The position numbers and the translations under genes are program-made. The notes below the pieces were generated by a model, which was given only the letters and a program-made list of their open reading frames with translations, searched no databases and had not been told where the DNA came from. Of a stretch of 24,322 bases of DNA, positions 4,724 to 24,322 are shown piece by piece. The stretch is taken from IMG/VR virus record IMGVR_UViG_3300015050_000552, positions 1 to 24,322 of that record; one strand, given 5' to 3'. Source of the DNA: a virus. Its lineage: Duplodnaviria; Caudoviricetes. Position 1 is the first letter of the stretch. Each line of letters opens with the position of its first letter.

Positions 4724-5130
4724 TGGATAAGATTGAACTCGAAGGTGAATTAAGTGACGCTGCTAGTGAACTGAAAGTCTGGAAGGACTTGAAGGAGACT
4801 CACGGCTGGCAGCGTATGCAGGTGATGGTTCAAGGGCAGATCAACGCCCGGTTTACTGAGTATCGGAAGCCTCTCGGTTCAATGGATGAGGTTCCCGCGC
4901 AAGAGTATTTGAAAGGCGAGATGGCTGGACTCGAGCTGTTCAGCGGTCTGTTGGATGCCGAGATTGAGAGACTCGAAGCGTTAATTGAACGTTTAACTAA
5001 GGAGATAGAAGATGAACCTGACACGGAAGATTCTGCAACGGCTGGAGATGCCGGAGGGGGAGACGGGCTCGACCTCATCGACGAGTCCCGCACCGACACC
5101 TTCGCCGACGGCAGCACCAGCAACACCTGA
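4723..5130 (+). CDS. small portal-adjacent head assembly protein (hypothetical)
   Basis: TGATG coupling to the portal. Helical protein (HGWQ...YLKGEMAGL) in the usual portal-scaffold slot. Its acidic tail overlaps the scaffold start. Confidence 0.7.
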   Translation: MDKIELEGELSDAASELKVWKDLKETHGWQRMQVMVQGQINARFTEYRKPLGSMDEVPAQEYLKGEMAGLELFSGLLDAEIERLEALIERLTKEIEDEPDTEDSATAGDAGGGDGLDLIDESRTDTFADGSTSNT

Positions 5131-6025
5131 AGCGCCTGCGGCTGCGGCCGGAGAAGATAACGGAGAGGTAGAAGATCTTTCTGCGTCTCCTGAAGATTGG
5201 GCTGCGCTCTCGGCCGAGACTGATGAAGATGAACCGGCAGCACCCGTTGCGACGCCAGCTCCTGCTGCGCCCGCTCCGGCACCTGCTGCCGCTCCGTCGC
5301 CTTCACCAGCTCCGGCTCCCGCACAGCCCGGTGCGCCGGCAACACCTGCAGCTGCTCCTGCGGCTCCTGCAGCAACACCAGCAACGCCTGCAACTCCGGT
5401 TGCAACGCCTGCTGCGCCAGCACCCCAGAGAACGGCCGAGGAACTGGAAGCAGAAGCCCGGCAAGCTGCGAAGACTTATCAGGACGGCTTGGAGAAAGCT
5501 TATCAACTTCCTGAAGACCTCGCAACGCAGGTAGCCACAGAGCCGGAACTCGTGCTGCCTAAGATTGCTGCGCAACTGCACATGGCAGTGGAACACGCGG
5601 TGCTTCAACGTGTTTCCCAGATGATTCCGGGGTATATCTCACATCACCAAGTTATCACGGTGAAGGAAGAGCAGGCCAAAGCGGCCTTCTTCGAGGCAAA
5701 CCCTGATCTGACAAACTATGACGCTCAAGTGCGGCAAGCCGGTCTGATGTTCAGAAGCTTGAACAAAGACGCAACTCCGGAACAAGCGATTCTGGCTATC
5801 GGGAATATGGTGAGATCGGCGATGGGTCTGCCGGCTTTGCAACCGAAACCAGGTGCTGGAGCGGGGCCTGCTGCCTCCGCAACACCAGTGGTTGTCACCC
5901 GTCCTGCTGGGACAGGCCATAAGCCTGCCATGCCGGGCTCTGGTGGCGGCGCTGCGCAACCTGCGGCTGGTAATGAGTGGGGCAATATGGCGGAAGCTAT
6001 GATCGCGGAAGATCAGGCGCCGTAA
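5012..6025 (+). CDS. capsid scaffolding protein
   Basis: AAGGAG RBS. Acidic, Pro/Ala-rich disordered N-terminal half and a helical core. Immediately upstream of the major capsid gene. Confidence 0.8.
   Translation: MNLTRKILQRLEMPEGETGSTSSTSPAPTPSPTAAPATPEAPAAAAGEDNGEVEDLSASPEDWAALSAETDEDEPAAPVATPAPAAPAPAPAAAPSPSPAPAPAQPGAPATPAAAPAAPAATPATPATPVATPAAPAPQRTAEELEAEARQAAKTYQDGLEKAYQLPEDLATQVATEPELVLPKIAAQLHMAVEHAVLQRVSQMIPGYISHHQVITVKEEQAKAAFFEANPDLTNYDAQVRQAGLMFRSLNKDATPEQAILAIGNMVRSAMGLPALQPKPGAGAGPAASATPVVVTRPAGTGHKPAMPGSGGGAAQPAAGNEWGNMAEAMIAEDQAP
5235..5430 (+). repeat. low-complexity Pro/Ala/Thr coding repeats (PAAP, ATP) within the scaffold
   Basis: Degenerate GCT/CCT/GCA/ACA codon repeats encoding PAAPVATPAPAAPAPAPAAAP...ATPATPATP. 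Confidence 0.75.
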
Positions 6026-7338: not shown

Positions 7339-7373
7339 AGCCCGGGTTCATTTCACACTTGAACCCGGGCTTT
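7339..7373 (+). terminator. intrinsic terminator-like hairpin after the capsid gene (probably leaky)
   Basis: Perfect 12-bp stem AGCCCGGGTTCA / TGAACCCGGGCT with a 9-nt loop and only a short T run. Lies in the only sizeable intergenic gap of the operon. Confidence 0.7.
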
Positions 7374-7385
7374 AACGGAGGCTCT

Positions 7386-8093
7386 ATGAGCTCTTTACTG
7401 CAGAAGTTTAAAGAATTGAATGTGTATGTCGCTGTTCCATCCCAAGGAATGTGGGTGGCCGACTTCGGCACTTCGCTTTGCAATATGTTGACTACCTGTG
7501 GTTCGCACAGGATTGAGAATTACAAGACGCAAAAGATTCACACTATGTCGTCCAAGGGATCGGTGCTGCCGAAACTGCGGTGGAATGTAGTTGAGGAATG
7601 TCAGAAGAAGGAAGCTGACTACTTGTTGTTTGTGGACAGCGATCAGACGTTCCCTCGCAGCACGTTGCACCGGCTTATTAAACATGGTAAGGATTGTGTG
7701 GGAGCTAACATTGCGACCAAGACAATACCGACGCAGCCGACTGCGCGGATTATCACGAAGGAAGAGCCGATTTTTGGCTCGCCGGTGTACACTGACCCGG
7801 AGTCAAAAGGGCTTCAAAAGGTATGGAGGGTAGGCACCGGGCTGGTGCTGCTCTCGAAGAAAGCGATCAATACGATCAAGCCTGAAGACTTTGACATGTA
7901 CTGGCGGGAAGATGTGAAGCTGCATCAGGGTGAGGACTGGACGATGTTTGCTGCTCTTGAGAAGGCAGGCATCGACGTTTGGGTAGATCATGACTTGTCG
8001 AAAGAAGTCGGACACGTCGGTCTCTTTGAATTCACACATGAGTATACAGGAGAGGTGAAGCATGTGGGTCATACCGTCTCGCGCGCGGCCTGA
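7386..8093 (+). CDS. glycosyltransferase, GT-A fold (GT2-like)
   Basis: Start reassigned to ATG 7386 (GGAGG RBS). VYVAVPS strand, DYLLFVDSD (DxD), GTGLVLL, GEDW, VWVDHDL...GHVG. Confidence 0.85.
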   Translation: MSSLLQKFKELNVYVAVPSQGMWVADFGTSLCNMLTTCGSHRIENYKTQKIHTMSSKGSVLPKLRWNVVEECQKKEADYLLFVDSDQTFPRSTLHRLIKHGKDCVGANIATKTIPTQPTARIITKEEPIFGSPVYTDPESKGLQKVWRVGTGLVLLSKKAINTIKPEDFDMYWREDVKLHQGEDWTMFAALEKAGIDVWVDHDLSKEVGHVGLFEFTHEYTGEVKHVGHTVSRAA

Positions 8094-8754
8094 TTGGCTG
8101 GCACGTCTCTGCGATTCTTTCGGGCCGGAAGACCTGAAGGAACCGGTTGCAGTTATACTCTGCAAAGAAGACCCGAAGTGGGACGAATACTATCGTCGCC
8201 AATGGCCTGAGACTTGGAGCATCAACTTGGCTCCGGAAGGTCATACGTATTGCGGAGAGAAGATGAATTGGGCACTGGCTCAATTTCCGAAAGCGAAGTT
8301 CTACGGGCATCTGTGTGATGATGTCTGGATCAAGACGAAAGATATGTTGCCGCAGCTTTCTGCCGCTGCTGGGGATTGGAAGATCAGCTACCCCGGTGAC
8401 GGTATCTATGACGATCAGGGAAAGGAGGCGATCATCTGTTTTCCTTGTTCTGGGGGTAAGTTGATACGAGCTCTCGGCTGGTGGGCTCACCCAGATTTGA
8501 AGCATAACTGTATCGATTCGGTGCTGACAGATATTGCCAGGATGGTGCCGGATTGCGAAGTTAACATGCGGCATTTGGAACTTGGTATGGTGCATCCGAG
8601 TGTCCGCAAAGATACGTGGGACGAGACTTACGAGCGCGTTGAGCTTATCAACCTCGAAGCCGGAACCATTTACCATCGAGTGTGGGATCGTCAGCCAGCA
8701 CAGAAAGACGCTCTCAATCGTATTCGTGAAGCAATGGAGGCCGACCGTGGCTGA
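8062..8754 (+). CDS. second putative glycosyltransferase, GT-A fold
   Basis: GAGG RBS. VIPSRARP start, EKMN, GHLCDDV (DD metal motif), ALGWW...KHNCID, C-terminal HP, in the order typical of small GT2-like proteins. Confidence 0.7.
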   Translation: MWVIPSRARPDWLARLCDSFGPEDLKEPVAVILCKEDPKWDEYYRRQWPETWSINLAPEGHTYCGEKMNWALAQFPKAKFYGHLCDDVWIKTKDMLPQLSAAAGDWKISYPGDGIYDDQGKEAIICFPCSGGKLIRALGWWAHPDLKHNCIDSVLTDIARMVPDCEVNMRHLELGMVHPSVRKDTWDETYERVELINLEAGTIYHRVWDRQPAQKDALNRIREAMEADRG

Positions 8755-18492: not shown

Positions 18493-21400
18493 ATGGGCCA
18501 AGTAATCAACACCACCTATGGCGAAACTTTTAACTTTCCGGATGATACACCTGAGGAAGTTATAAGTCAGACGGTTCGGAAATACGCTCCGAAAGGGCCT
18601 ACGAGCCCGGAAGTCATCTCTGGAACTTTAAGCGCTATTCCAGGTCAGTTGACGGCCGGTGCGCTTGCCGTGAAGTCTGCCGTGCGTATGCCGAAACTTC
18701 CTTTTGTTACAACTGATCCGCTCGAGGAACTGCAACATCTGAATGCGAGTGGTCGGTATGGGCAAGGGGATATGGAAATCCTCAGTCAGGCTTTGCATAA
18801 GAAGCCGCTTGCGCAGGTGACTGAAGAGCATATGGTAGGTGAACGTCGTCGGCAGGAGGAACGTGCGACTGCTGCGACGGTAGGTAAGATGGCCTCGGAG
18901 AATCTGCCTCCGAACATGACGACAGGCGGAGAAGTGCTGAGTTCAGTCGTTGGTAGCGTGGCGACTGCTTTGCCTGCTGTGGCTGCGGGTATTGTGACGA
19001 AGAGTCCGGCTGTAGCTATCGGAACGATGGGTGGAGCTTCTGCACTTACGAGTGCTGGAACTGGTGCACAGTCCAATGCAACGGACTCCGATCTGTTGAC
19101 TACCGCTGCAGCTGTCGGTGGTGTAGAAGCTGCGTTCGAGACGATTCCTACCAAGATGCTGTTCAAGATGTTCGACGGTAAGAATCTGCTTGCGAAAGGC
19201 TTGAAATTCATCGCGGCTGAAGAATTGACTGAACTGCCGACTACCGCGGTGCAGAAAGCCTTGGAAACCGCTGGCTATAACCCTGATACTCCTGCTGATC
19301 AGTTCTTCGCGGAGTTGAAGCATGATCTGTTGATTACCGCTCTCGCCACGCCATTCGCTGCTGGCACTCAGGCAGGTATGGTTGCTGGTGTTCAGAAGCT
19401 ACAAGAGCGTTCTGCCGGTAAGACGATAGGCGATCTCGTTGGTGAAGATATCGACAAGATTCGTGAACTGAAAACGAATCTCGATCTTGCACAAGAACTG
19501 CAAGAAATGGGTATTCCTGTCGACTTGAAGCAAAAGCAGGATGCTTACAATATGGCGCTGCGGAAGTATATGGAGCCGCCGGAAACCCCGGGTTCAAGTG
19601 AGACTAGTCCCCGGGATAAACCCACAATCCAGACAAGCGTGCTTTCCCCTGAAACCGCTGCTCTGATTCAATCAATTGACGCTGAATTAAATCCGGAGAA
19701 CATAACCGATGAACAGGTTTCTCAGGCAAGGGCGCAGGTCGCAAGTTTTGAAGAAGCAACAAAGAGACCTGCAAGAGATGAAAGCGTTGCTCACCTCCGC
19801 GGGCTTGACGACCTCCAGCACGAAGGCGACATCGGAGAGTCTGCAAAGGTTGCAAGAAACGCTATCAACTACGCGAATGAGAATGACTTAACTGCGAGGA
19901 GTGAACGGCCGATTATTGCTGGGCCTGCTGGCACGGAAGGATTGACGCTTCAGCAAGTTGAGATCGAGAAGGTGCCTGGTGTGTATGCGGTAGGTTTGCC
20001 AACAGCGGATCGCTCAGAGGAGTTTACACGAGCTACGCAGGAGACGCTCGAGAAGTGGCGGGCCCAGTATCTGCCGAATACTTCGTTTATCTTGCTGAAT
20101 GAATCAGTGCCAACGCGCAATGCTGGTGGCTGGCACTCACGGCTTGGAAGCGGCGTGCATGTGATTCTGCCCAATGCGTTGCGGAATCTGAAGAATCCTG
20201 CACAGTATAACACGAACGCGCAGTTTAAGCAGCTCTACACGCTAGCGCATGAGTTCGGGCACGCACTGTTCGATGAAAAGATGTTCGAAGGTGTCGAGCC
20301 GACCGTGCGCCAACTGGTGGAAACACAGGGGCAACTTGGGTTAGTTGGAGAAGAGACACTGGCTCAACTTCCTGAGGCGCAAGCTGGTATCCTGCGCGAA
20401 TTCAATGCGCTTAAAGCGAGGGTAATGAGCAATGAAATCACGGCGCAGGAATTCATCAACGAGTGGATGGGCCCGGCGAAGATTCACCGCTCAAGCTTCG
20501 CTGCCGATCACGGAGTCTCAGGCGATGCCCCCGCTATACAGCTCGTCGACGCTATCATCCGGCGAAGCATCCGAACAAATGAATCGCTCACTGGAGAACA
20601 GCTTTTCAAACTCAGGAACGAATTCCTGGGAGTGAATGAGTATTTCGCTGAGCAAATGGCTCGTCATGCGTATGACAAGAAATGGGATGAAAGTTCGGCT
20701 TATAACAAGGAATCGCTGTTTGCGCGGGCTTTTGCTAGCGCGAGAGCTTTGCTCATGGATTTCTTCAAAGATTTAAAGAAAGAAGGTGGTCTGGCTGCTG
20801 GTGTTAAATTCCAGGATTGGCTGGATGGACTGACTGCGGTTCCGGTGCTGGAACAGCAAGAAACTCCGCTTAAGCCTGTCAAGCCGAAGGTGAAGAAAAA
20901 GGCTGCTATACCGAAGAAACCTGCGATTAAGAAAACTGATTTAAACGAGGAAACTGAGAGTAAGCAGCAGATTCTCAATGCCCGTAAAGTCGTCACCGGA
21001 TTGGTTCGCTCTGGTGACATTGAGGCAGGTGGTGAGCAATATAAACACTTCATGCAGCTTATCAAGGCGAATGACTTTTCAACTTTCATCGAAGAAATTC
21101 AGCCTTTGACGGAAAAGAAAATCAAGCTGGAACTGGACAACGATATTCCTGATGTTCGCACAATGGGGCTGCAAATGGACCCCAAGCGTCTCGTTCAGCA
21201 GTTCGGTGCGAATATGTATTCTGGTGACTTGCCGTCGACTATCGTGAAAGAGCTGGTGCAGAACAGTTTCGACGCGATCAAGCAGGCACAGAATAAGGAA
21301 ACCGGCGATCCACTTGAGCAGGTGCCTATTCATAATATTAAGGTCACTACGGACAGTAAAGCTCGCACGATTACTGTGTCAGATACCGGCGTTGGCATGA

Positions 21401-24322
21401 CTCCGGAAATCCTGCAAAAGGCTTTCTTGACGTATCCTGGGTCGAGTAAGCTTGGTTTGAAGCCGGAGCAGGCTTCTGGTGGTCTTGGCCTCGCGAAGGT
21501 GCTGATTCTCTTTGTGCCAGAACGTCTGGTTGTAACGACTATTCGTGATGGTAAGAAGACCGTAATGGATACGACTCCCGATGAGATAATCGAGGGGAAT
21601 ACGCAAGCAGTTGTGACTGATACGGCAGAGGAATCTGGCACAACAGTTCAACTGTTTCTGCCTGCTGTGATCGAGCGTCCGAGTGGTGTTGAAGAAGTTG
21701 AAATTTCAGGTTATCCTTGGAATTATAAGGCGCTGACAAAAGGAGTGTTAGGTCGCGATATTGCGATTACACTGAACGATTTGCCAGTTACTACTTCTTT
21801 TGCTGAATCGAATACAGAAACTCTCGAGAAAGACTTCTCTTGGGGAAAGGCAACAGTTCGCTTTAATCCGAAGGCTGGTATCTATCCGACTCAGGATGTA
21901 TACAGTTCTGGGCTGTATCAGTTCGAGACACAGCTTCGCTTGCCGAATGGCGAAGATTTGCCGTTTAATGCTCAGATCAACATTGAACCTCATGTAACCG
22001 CGAGTGAGGCTGCATACCCATTCGAGAACAATCGGCAGAATTTCAAGAAGCACGTTATCAAAGATATCGGCGAGTTAACCTTCAGTTTATACGAGGAATA
22101 CATCGCTGCCCGCTTGCGGGAAAGTGCTGATACTTACTCGCAGGTAGTTGGTTTGAGTGAGAATCTGATTCAGCCAAATATCAATACGACGACTACCAAA
22201 GATGGTAAGAATATTGAAATGGATATAGGTATTCCTGACAATATTCCGCTGTATAACAACATGACGAACTTCGACTTTCTGGGACTGCCGGAATATAAGA
22301 AGATGCTGACTCGTATCGGCAATGTCTTTACGTCTGTTGGCCAGCGAGTTGCTCGTATGCCTGGAATTGGAAAGCCAAGCTGGGATTTGGATAAGCCTAC
22401 CCATTTCGGCGTCTTTTTCCAGAAGAGCCCGAAGGGAGGCGAACTCTTCGGCATTAACATGGTTAAGCCATATCAAGCTATCTTCATCAATCCGGTAGCT
22501 GGTAAGAAGCGTGAAACGGCTGAAGCTATGGCCGAGGAAATCTACCAAACTTTCGTGCATGAATTAGCTCATATTCCTGAGCGTTCGCACGACGCTGATT
22601 TTGCCAATGCGCTTGCTGAAGTCCAAGTGCTCATGGCCGAGTCTAACCTCATGAACCGAGCGCGCGGCTCACTCTTGAACATAATCCGCGAGAACTTCCA
22701 AACCTATAAGGATATGTATGACACCTATCACAACGTCAGCACAGTTAATCAGGGACAATCTTTTGAAGGAACACAAAGGGAAGACGCCGGCACTCAAGCT
22801 GGAGCTGACCTTGGTGGGCCTGGAGACGCACGCAGCGATAGCCAAGCAGGAGGGCGAACTGGAGCTGGCAGCCGCTCTGGAAGAGGAAATATCGAATATG
22901 AACTCGATGATGATGGTGGCTTCTCCATCCCCCACGCCGGCTCCGAGCTCAGCCCAGCAGCCCTCACCGCAGCAGCCGCCGAGTGGAAGCGCGCCGGTTT
23001 CCGCTCTCGTTTCTTCACCGCCTGGTTCGGGGACTGGGAAGGCGACCCCTCCGGCAGCAGCAAAGCCTTAAACTCGCGTGGAGAGCCGCTGGTTCTGTAT
23101 CATTCGAGCCGAGCGAAGGTAAATACTCCGCGTGGAGAAGAGCCTTTTGAAGTGTTCCAGAGAGGTGATATTGGGTACCACTTTGGCACTACTTTAGCTG
23201 CCCACGCGCGTGCACTTATCGGTCCGGCGGAGGAATTCTCCAATCCGTCTCAGGCTGATATCGATGAGATTATCTGGAGTCGTGAGTATCCCGCAGCGTT
23301 GAACTGGGGTAAAGGCGAAGTCACCCCGTTTTACATTATGCCTGTTGTTTTGAATATCAGGAATCCTGCTGTAGTAGAGGACGAAGTGCCTGATATGTGG
23401 CATAACCCTGATGTGATGCTTGCTGTGCTGGAAGAGGCAGGAATACTGACTTCTGAAGATGTGTCCATCATTGAACTTGCAGAGGGAAACTCCGATCATA
23501 CGAGGATGATGAACATTCGTGACTTTCTTGACTTGAAAGGTTACGATGGTATTAAGTATGACAACATCATCGAAGGTGGTGTATCGTGGGTTGCTTTCTA
23601 CCCGAATCAGGTGAAGTCTGTCCTCGGCACTAAGGTGTTCTCGAAGCTGCCGCAGATTCACTACGAGACTGAGTATGACGATGCTTCTCCTTCAGGTCAT
23701 ACCGCAGCTCGTTTCCGTGACAAGATGAAGCCGTTCTTCCCTGACTATGGTATGTTCAGGAGAGCCTTCCGTTCAGTCACGAACCTGCAATATAAGGTTC
23801 TCCAGCTTCAACAGCTGGCCCATATCCACCCTGATCTAGCTGACTTGCAATTCATGGTTGAGACGAACATGAATTACAACCGCTATAAATCGAGTCTTCA
23901 GGAGGCAGCCGACGGTATTTCTCAGGAATGGGAAGCGTTGGGGAAAGAGAACTTCTCACGGATAAATAAGATGCTTCAGGACGAAGCGTCAGCTGGCGCT
24001 CTGTGGGTTGATCTGCATAAGAATCCGCAGTCAGGACAGTGGGAGTATATTCCAAACGCTGAAACCGAAAAGCAGCTGAAATCCCATGGAATAGACGTTA
24101 ACACACAGGCTGGAAAAGACGTAGCTGAGCTTTTCTTAAAGGTGAAAAACTCTCTTCTTTCCAATCTTAACGAGACCGAAACAGTCCTTATCTCGCTCAT
24201 CGCACGTCGCTATGCTGCTGCTCCACAGGGGACACTTAACGCCGCTATTATCCCACTCAAGCGTGAAATCCATGAAATCAGGAAACGTCCGTATTTCCCT
24301 CAAGGGCGGTTCGGAAACTATA
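18493..24322 (+). CDS. giant polyvalent internal virion protein, 3'-truncated (zincin + GHKL ATPase + zincin + ADP-ribosyltransferase-like + PLxRFG-like)
   Basis: Absent from the ORF track. TAAGGA RBS, ATG 18493, no stop in frame +1 to the window end (at least 1943 codons, translated by hand). HEFGH 20248-20262 and EYFAE 20638-20652; ELVQNSFDA 21250, DTGVGMT 21382, SGGLGLA 21475, GTTV 21637; HELAH-x5-H 22558-22590; WFGDWE 23023, PLVLYH, PVVLNIRNP, GYDGIKY, AFYPNQVKS; YFPQGRFGNY 24292. Confidence 0.92.
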   Translation, partial: MGQVINTTYGETFNFPDDTPEEVISQTVRKYAPKGPTSPEVISGTLSAIPGQLTAGALAVKSAVRMPKLPFVTTDPLEELQHLNASGRYGQGDMEILSQALHKKPLAQVTEEHMVGERRRQEERATAATVGKMASENLPPNMTTGGEVLSSVVGSVATALPAVAAGIVTKSPAVAIGTMGGASALTSAGTGAQSNATDSDLLTTAAAVGGVEAAFETIPTKMLFKMFDGKNLLAKGLKFIAAEELTELPTTAVQKALETAGYNPDTPADQFFAELKHDLLITALATPFAAGTQAGMVAGVQKLQERSAGKTIGDLVGEDIDKIRELKTNLDLAQELQEMGIPVDLKQKQDAYNMALRKYMEPPETPGSSETSPRDKPTIQTSVLSPETAALIQSIDAELNPENITDEQVSQARAQVASFEEATKRPARDESVAHLRGLDDLQHEGDIGESAKVARNAINYANENDLTARSERPIIAGPAGTEGLTLQQVEIEKVPGVYAVGLPTADRSEEFTRATQETLEKWRAQYLPNTSFILLNESVPTRNAGGWHSRLGSGVHVILPNALRNLKNPAQYNTNAQFKQLYTLAHEFGHALFDEKMFEGVEPTVRQLVETQGQLGLVGEETLAQLPEAQAGILREFNALKARVMSNEITAQEFINEWMGPAKIHRSSFAADHGVSGDAPAIQLVDAIIRRSIRTNESLTGEQLFKLRNEFLGVNEYFAEQMARHAYDKKWDESSAYNKESLFARAFASARALLMDFFKDLKKEGGLAAGVKFQDWLDGLTAVPVLEQQETPLKPVKPKVKKKAAIPKKPAIKKTDLNEETESKQQILNARKVVTGLVRSGDIEAGGEQYKHFMQLIKANDFSTFIEEIQPLTEKKIKLELDNDIPDVRTMGLQMDPKRLVQQFGANMYSGDLPSTIVKELVQNSFDAIKQAQNKETGDPLEQVPIHNIKVTTDSKARTITVSDTGVGMTPEILQKAFLTYPGSSKLGLKPEQASGGLGLAKVLILFVPERLVVTTIRDGKKTVMDTTPDEIIEGNTQAVVTDTAEESGTTVQLFLPAVIERPSGVEEVEISGYPWNYKALTKGVLGRDIAITLNDLPVTTSFAESNTETLEKDFSWGKATVRFNPKAGIYPTQDVYSSGLYQFETQLRLPNGEDLPFNAQINIEPHVTASEAAYPFENNRQNFKKHVIKDIGELTFSLYEEYIAARLRESADTYSQVVGLSENLIQPNINTTTTKDGKNIEMDIGIPDNIPLYNNMTNFDFLGLPEYKKMLTRIGNVFTSVGQRVARMPGIGKPSWDLDKPTHFGVFFQKSPKGGELFGINMVKPYQAIFINPVAGKKRETAEAMAEEIYQTFVHELAHIPERSHDADFANALAEVQVLMAESNLMNRARGSLLNIIRENFQTYKDMYDTYHNVSTVNQGQSFEGTQREDAGTQAGADLGGPGDARSDSQAGGRTGAGSRSGRGNIEYELDDDGGFSIPHAGSELSPAALTAAAAEWKRAGFRSRFFTAWFGDWEGDPSGSSKALNSRGEPLVLYHSSRAKVNTPRGEEPFEVFQRGDIGYHFGTTLAAHARALIGPAEEFSNPSQADIDEIIWSREYPAALNWGKGEVTPFYIMPVVLNIRNPAVVEDEVPDMWHNPDVMLAVLEEAGILTSEDVSIIELAEGNSDHTRMMNIRDFLDLKGYDGIKYDNIIEGGVSWVAFYPNQVKSVLGTKVFSKLPQIHYETEYDDASPSGHTAARFRDKMKPFFPDYGMFRRAFRSVTNLQYKVLQLQQLAHIHPDLADLQFMVETNMNYNRYKSSLQEAADGISQEWEALGKENFSRINKMLQDEASAGALWVDLHKNPQSGQWEYIPNAETEKQLKSHGIDVNTQAGKDVAELFLKVKNSLLSNLNETETVLISLIARRYAAAPQGTLNAAIIPLKREIHEIRKRPYFPQGRFGNY
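22718..23071 (+). CDS. candidate nested (overprinted) small helical protein inside the giant gene
   Basis: TAAGGA (22707-22712) lies 5 nt before ATG 22718. The first ~60 codons read as an amphipathic E/L/A helix with typical codons (CTG GAG, GCC AAG CAG GAG), exactly where the main frame degrades to a G/A/R/S linker. Confidence 0.55.
   Translation: MTPITTSAQLIRDNLLKEHKGKTPALKLELTLVGLETHAAIAKQEGELELAAALEEEISNMNSMMMVASPSPTPAPSSAQQPSPQQPPSGSAPVSALVSSPPGSGTGKATPPAAAKP

Follow-up and report, generated by a model that had tools for sequence, protein, structure and literature searches.

A short peptide tag marks an exchangeable slot in a giant polyvalent ejection-type phage protein and is a candidate processing site

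How does a phage delimit several biochemically unrelated enzymes that it carries within one giant polypeptide, and could these be parted again? The question is raised by the last gene of the virion block on a contig of a tailed phage (IMG/VR record IMGVR_UViG_3300015050_000552), which was analysed over its whole 24,322 nucleotides (24.3 kb, hereafter the window) and is part of a genome only. The block is podovirus-like, with terminase, SU10-type portal and capsid, adaptor, tail, lysis and ejection-type genes; those for terminase, portal, capsid, adaptor and tail lie upstream of the giant gene on the same strand, which is the late, virion-gene setting of polyvalent proteins. The giant gene (18493..24321, plus strand) encodes 1943 residues and is open at the contig end, and complete relatives that carry both of its cassettes measure 2650-2690 residues. 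Its product joins a GHKL ATPase, two HExxH zincins and an ART-PolyVal-like ADP-ribosyltransferase, and judging from gene position and family it is probably packaged in the virion and injected. It thus resembles the phage-type polyvalent proteins, large late-gene products that join zincin, ART-PolyVal and unrelated enzymes and for which the main text of Iyer, Burroughs, Anand, de Souza and Aravind (2017, PMC5512222) proposes that a zincin-like MPTase cuts them into units. A tblastn search of cultured phages with the whole giant protein returned two weak ART hits and no close relative. Elsewhere in the block, two adjacent glycosyltransferase-like genes (phrog_1574 and phrog_14945, 7359-8754) directly 3' of the major capsid gene possibly serve capsid glycosylation, and a Pro/Ala-rich gene ahead of the capsid gene (5012-6025, GC up to 0.6, no family match) is a probable scaffold gene.

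The giant protein is built of modules that end in short, similar peptides, all in frame on the plus strand. Zincin 1, the candidate processing protease, occupies approximately 19810..20847 (aa 440-785), with HEFGH at 20248..20262 (aa 586-590, hence H586, E587 and H590) and EYFAE at 20638..20652 (aa 716-720), in which E716 or E720 probably serves as the third ligand of the metal. The zincin half ends in the tag IKLELD (21121..21138), followed by a first cassette (21139..22890) of GHKL ATPase (by Pfam aa 915-1058), zincin 2 with HELAH at 22558-22572 (aa 1356) and a polar linker of ~45 residues. This cassette ends in IEYELD (22891..22908), and a tag at this place is present in all six training members that carry both GHKL and ART. 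The second cassette (22909..23655) is the ART-PolyVal-like ADP-ribosyltransferase with an N-terminal extension; its domain (Pfam aa 1529-1712) scores 31.1 bits against a Pfam cut-off of 31.2, which is 0.1 bit under, and homologs P0001, P0002, P0003, P0005, P0007 and P0008 lie above the cut-off. It ends in IHYETE (23656..23673), after which the conserved C-terminal half starts (23674..24321). The PLxRFG (tail-700) domain of that half would begin at the contig end, so the window protein stays under the NF032893 cut-off, which is passed by homologs P0004, P0005, P0011, P0108 and P0164. A preliminary description had placed eight-residue versions of the tags, IKLELDND at 21121-21144 (aa 877), IEYELDDD at 22891-22914 (aa 1467) and IHYETEYD at 23656-23679 (aa 1722), correctly, and had taken them to flank each effector domain. 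The tags do sit at module borders, but each ends a module rather than enclosing it, and GHKL and zincin 2 form a single cassette.

Taken alone, this one protein does not establish its motif. The translated sequence holds no fourth match to the pattern first proposed (I-x-[LY]-E-[LT]-[DE]-x-D), and the DNA of the copies differs as had been claimed: the longest shared in-register run is 5 nt, and seven of nine codon pairs for the same residue are synonymous variants. In shuffled sequence the literal pattern occurs once in 16 of 20,000 shuffles and never twice, but it was fitted afterwards; in a look-elsewhere test the BLOSUM sum of the motif triple is 58, compared with 61-81 for the best triples in 30 of 30 shuffles. 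The expected excess over shuffled sequence thus holds for the fitted pattern and fails for the protein as a whole: from the single protein the repeat is not above chance, and the reality of the motif rests on its homologs. With the family profile, PSWDLD (aa 1295, nt 22375-22392), inside the GHKL-zincin cassette, even outscores the second junction; it was treated as noise and is, by eye, absent from the equivalent part of L001, the closest relative. The same profile gave five chance hits of at least 9 bits in 22,988 residues of other ORFs, and no site of that strength in the 24 other ORFs of the window.

Scans of viral contigs yielded no matches with a single query and 11 + 1 loci with an alignment as query. 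The training set comprises 58 proteins, 57 of which cover junction 1 and 57 junction 3; two fragments (L011, P0030), the remote homologs P0051-P0056 and three duplicates (L002, L004, L009) were left out. The junction register was set by hand in P0039, L005 and P0045, and every site could shift by up to ~5 residues in a local refinement, a freedom that is built into the window-corrected null. At 113 sites the tag reads V/I/M/L-x-F/W/M/L/Y-E/D/Q-L/R/T-D/E, or [VILM]-x-[FWYLM]-[EDQ]-x-[DE] as a consensus. The exact pattern of the preliminary description was overfitted, its literal 6-mer being found at one of 57 junction-1 and two of 57 junction-3 sites (3/114) and its trailing x-D at 8/57 and 36/57, respectively. 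The core of an aromatic residue, L or M followed by D, E or Q is present at 51/57 junction-1 and 56/57 junction-3 sites. In 31 of 56 proteins a profile trained on junction 1 ranks junction 3 among the top three of ~2,100 positions, and in 48 it is among the top ten; a profile trained on junction 3 ranks junction 1 in the top three in 36 of 56 and in the top ten again in 48. After window correction, these cross-trained profiles reach p≤0.05 in 53/56 and 51/56 proteins. The held-out set consists of 71 later proteins of at least 1700 residues from a full-library search, two of which repeat the training loci L006 and L007; here the junctions were located from profiles of their flanks, the motif itself being excluded. 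There, p≤0.05 was obtained for 25/30 anchored junction-1 and 52/71 junction-3 sites, several misses being tags just beyond the search window. The peptide core lasts across proteins that are 22-35% identical and whose flanks diverge, cassette-free members included, which bears out the claimed conservation at the peptide level. A search for further copies in the C halves of the family found no site of at least 9 bits in 51,858 residues; permuted profiles gave 1-31 such sites there, and the N halves showed no such effect. The rows of this comparison are related, so that avoidance of the tag outside the seams is no more than a possibility. Judged by the cross-trained and held-out comparisons, the junction tag is real and under selection, and it delimits a slot of this polyvalent ejection protein whose contents can be exchanged.

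The contents of the slot vary. The GHKL-zincin cassette and the ART cassette are found together, each alone and both missing, other cassettes occur as well, and the breakpoints lie at the motif; that the motif borders swappable cassettes, as had been proposed, is thus confirmed by gain, loss and exchange at the tag in aligned homologs. A single tag and no cassette are found in P0004 (with two more full-length members of its cluster) and P0094, an ART alone occurs in some members, the GHKL-zincin cassette alone in four training members (P0025, P0027, P0028 and P0033), and both cassettes with three tags in six of six (the window protein, L001, P0011, P0012, P0013 and P0037). In most members the number of tag copies equals the number of cassettes plus one. 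Other slot contents include a module recognised by an E-I/L-Q-S-D signature, which occurs by itself or ahead of an ART, and a kinase-like module before the ART. P0033 and P0035 carry different cassettes, yet their zincin cores (at a distance of 0.013 in the zincin tree) and their C halves are nearly identical, with no difference in the 40 residues after junction 3. Most of the further cassettes have no Pfam match (PcfJ-like, E-I/L-Q-S-D, kinase-like and LPD23: P0014, P0017, P0035, P0095, P0117; P0009, P0047-P0050, L007; P0043; P0135); the name PcfJ-like is a provisional one, given from a signature.

Cassette-free members point to the origin of the arrangement. In twelve of 14, one clear tag stands where the zincin half meets the C-terminal PLxRFG ejection half (it is degenerate in the other two), and because they keep one copy, the oldest job of the tag was probably to serve as this seam. 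F-R-N-V-x-Y/F-E-L-D closes the GHKL cassette both before an ART and before the C half: the tag travels with the module upstream of it. The rule has exceptions. In two-segment inserts, with the mis-anchored P0018 excluded, the tag before the distal ART matches the core in 11/13 training and 16/22 held-out cases, reaching p≤0.05 in 9/13 and 9/22, and no tag precedes the ART in 2/13 and 6/22 (P0003, L006, P0096, P0105, P0106, P0134, P0157 and P0159); by eye, P0001, P0002 and P0006 likewise have none before the ART. In P0121 an ART without a trailing tag lies upstream of the seam, and in a cassette-free clade tag-free SLT lytic transglycosylases are inserted upstream of zincin 1 (P0108, P0115, P0119, P0120, P0122, P0124 and P0130), which argues that the tag is the mark of one slot and not of every domain border. 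Two remote homologs, P0052 and P0053, possess the zincin and the C half and no such tag; the zincin hence does not need it.

The first cassette also occurs on its own. Six free-standing GHKL-zincin homologs of 545-595 residues (P0057-P0062) match it end to end (window 21139-22770), starting ~5 residues after tag 1 and stopping where the polar linker begins. At the ends of these six proteins there is no tag (≤2.8 bits), and three profile hits of at least 9 bits elsewhere in them are put down to chance. Their existence suggests that cassette 1 can work as a separate protein. For the combination of a GHKL ATPase with a WLM-like zincin, the GHKL domain is the only part that has a family name.

The reading that we favour, with a probability of about one half, is that the tag is a processing site at the conserved seam, probably read by zincin 1, whose action would split the halves and free the cassettes; that some protease cleaves the tag is likely. 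Each cassette inserted at the seam ends in its own copy of the tag; zincin 1 would read the tag and part the zincin half from the C-terminal ejection half, and the cuts would release GHKL-zincin and ART as free enzymes, in the head or after injection. Cleavage would fall at or just after the acidic residues of the tag, since these move together with the module before them and homology is lost no more than ~10 residues further on. Both tags of L003 are predicted to lie in coil between domains (pLDDT 65-70), as sites in accessible linkers would. Also in favour of this reading, copies within one protein resemble each other more than permuted partners do (p 0.0001, n=55; p 0.0003 in the 42-member main clade and 0.02 after thinning to 32), for example FEPD/MEPD in P0032, a WDRE type at all sites of a distant clade and FSTS twice in P0113, with kinship not removed from these figures; a tree-aware test found only 2-5 independent pairs, too few to reach significance. 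Potyvirus NIa and picornavirus 3C offer a parallel, as there a polyprotein is cut by its own protease at repeated short sites at module ends, with specificity lying mostly upstream; the likeness is one of working principle only, between unrelated viruses with another class of protease, where cleavage is proven and here it is inferred.

What favours zincin 1 as the cutter is the invariance of its residues, together with the free-standing versions of the GHKL cassette. H586, E587, H590 and E716 are found in 125 of 125 aligned members and E720 in 123, with the proviso that these 125 were picked for having HExxH and one further member is without. That member, P0164, found on 11 contigs, has HEFGR and a Ser at the position of E716 (aa ~490-600), and has thus lost two metal ligands. 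It nevertheless keeps matching tags, PKFDVG and LHFDLG, despite its dead zincin 1 (one of 126 members), and speaks more strongly than anything else against a tag read by zincin 1 alone; the tagless inserts weaken the case as well. An AlphaFold2 model of aa 431-896 (mean pLDDT 84) places HEFGH on a helix (144-167 of the model), and its fold matches, the best at Z 7.5, include many zinc peptidases, among them ERAP1 (rmsd 5.1, 172 aligned) and lugdulysin (rmsd 3.7, 147 aligned), with none at Z of at least 8. Foldseek with the zincin 1 model gave no match at E≤0.001, Foldseek against viral models only ART and uncharacterised matches, and a profile search of solved structures only repeat-protein noise. 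Two other candidates were set aside: zincin 2 as a general cutter, as it is found only in GHKL cassettes and is absent from most members, and protein splicing, rejected on sight since the tags have no Cys/Ser/Thr-His-Asn pattern.

Published virion proteins with an MPTase domain point both ways. P1 DdrB, according to the part of the survey that covers it, is processed before packaging, the cutter being inferred and the site not given (PMC5512222), and N4 virion RNA polymerase, with its HExxH zincin, is there described as packaged unprocessed; as far as these accounts go, neither is reported to have repeated tags. In the relevant section of the phi24B report, the authors assign the metallopeptidase of a polyvalent protein to peptidoglycan (10.64898/2026.04.10.717836), and this assignment together with the unprocessed N4 protein weakens zincin 1 as a processing protease. 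For a crAss-like polyprotein the passages concerned speak of 'likely cleaved' and leave the role of the zincin open (10.1101/2020.03.07.982082).

The same N4 protein lends weight to an explanation in which the tag is never cut. It would act as a binding handle, an amphipathic strand that docks modules in core assembly, in unfolding and passage through the ejection channel or in re-folding, with zincin 1 acting elsewhere, on the cell wall or a host protein. The alternation of hydrophobic and charged residues in the tag would suit such a role, as would the tags kept alongside the dead zincin of P0164, and N4 vRNAP is not only a zincin-bearing ejection protein reported as unprocessed but is also modelled, in the portion of PMC13434306 that deals with it, as flexibly linked units. 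We nonetheless consider a docking handle unlikely, as the free-standing GHKL-zincin homologs suggest a cassette that works as a separate protein, the tag occurs in no other virion protein of the window, and the transglycosylases inserted ahead of zincin 1 do without one. Structure prediction is uninformative either way: in two monomer models no confident strand is formed at the tags, with one single-residue bridge at V433 of the L003 model.

A cut site could also be served in trans, by a phage protease encoded outside the window or by a host protease. The concordant tags of P0164 would then need no active zincin 1, and the partial genome leaves room for such a gene. Among the 25 ORFs of the window, however, the only other protease recognised is an M15 endolysin, with no head protease in the virion block, and the zincin site is kept in 125 of 126 members. 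The tag sequence, moreover, follows the zincin tree, shifting in type from ELD to DRE, QVD and DTD along it, as would be expected if tag and reader shared a genome. A cutter in trans is therefore, in our view, rather improbable.

Could the tags be DNA scars, left as cassettes move in and out by short-homology recombination that duplicates ~18 nt, and the peptide be without a job? Exact repeats over the tags of 18 nt in L008, 12 nt in L007 and 9 nt in L002 speak for such events, and the single copy of cassette-free members looks like an empty target site. The repeats of L008 and L007 also show that likeness among copies can come from duplication or conversion. Runs of at least 12 nt are, however, confined to two of 17 tag pairs across nine genomes, and the 5-nt maximum in the window is short of a target-site duplication. 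The seven differing codons out of nine in the window, and a peptide core that outlasts diverged flanks at 22-35% identity even where no cassette is present, make scars without function very unlikely: they account for the origin of the copies, not for their persistence. Possibly an insertion event duplicates the tag, and it is the peptide that is preserved from then on. In L008:1051-7479 (tags at aa 879 and 1153) and L007 (aa 1266 and 1526), a recent duplication or gene conversion is possible. Chance likeness among acidic linkers, for which the negative single-protein test and the scattered hits of at least 9 bits in other ORFs and in the free GHKL proteins could be cited, is refuted by the cross-trained and held-out homolog tests and has a negligible probability.

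A broader and more tentative reading, to which we give somewhat less than even odds, is that T7-gp16-like ejection proteins of this podovirus group hold a self-cleaving expansion slot. An ancestral zincin site would part the ejection halves, and captured free-standing enzymes, each with a new copy of the tag, would be packaged, injected and released as effectors. The tag of each lineage would be matched to its zincin, so that FELD, WDRE, RWDTD, FSR (F116) and LxQG (Jess A) would each be paired with their own. A protease-and-site code of this kind would parse polyvalent proteins into delivered effectors from sequence alone.

Zincin processing has been proposed since 2017 without a site, and the tag defined here supplies a testable candidate. 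The main text of PMC5512222 mentions no cleavage site, junction motif, GHKL or HSP90, and its supplements could hold such alignments; the site, the copy-number rule and the empty-site members are what the present family adds. In the main texts of open-licence papers, no description of a junction motif in proteins of this kind was found. With the tag, unnamed injected effectors can be delimited exactly, among them the GHKL ATPase-zincin, which is absent from the main text of that survey. The tag also suggests a way in which phages acquire enzymes for early host takeover with no need of further packaging signals. Natural empty-site, swapped and dead-protease alleles, together with the layout of a cultured phage protein, F116 gp60, make a direct experiment possible.

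Pseudomonas phage F116 gp60, listed as a T7 IVP-D homolog in the part of PMC4819975 concerned with it, shows the same order of parts (L014:7420-12369), with zincins, then an ART, then the PLxRFG domain, and the ART stands between the short motifs QAFSRT and ILFSRS, a pair found by eye, without statistics. It differs from the window protein in its motif, F-S-R instead of F-E-L-D, in having two zincins and in having no GHKL domain, and a literature search found no processing data for it. Likewise by eye and without statistics, Pseudoalteromonas phage Y7 (L013) has IRYSQS and MKFSRG after its ART and QKFSRT before a zincin-like region, and in Caulobacter phage Jess A gp39 (L015:7213-13332) SLTQGE and LLAQGE flank the ART cassette. 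F116, Y7 and Jess A are thus cultured phages with ART cassettes between other short motifs (F/Y-S-R/Q and L-x-Q-G-E), and as such are ready test systems.
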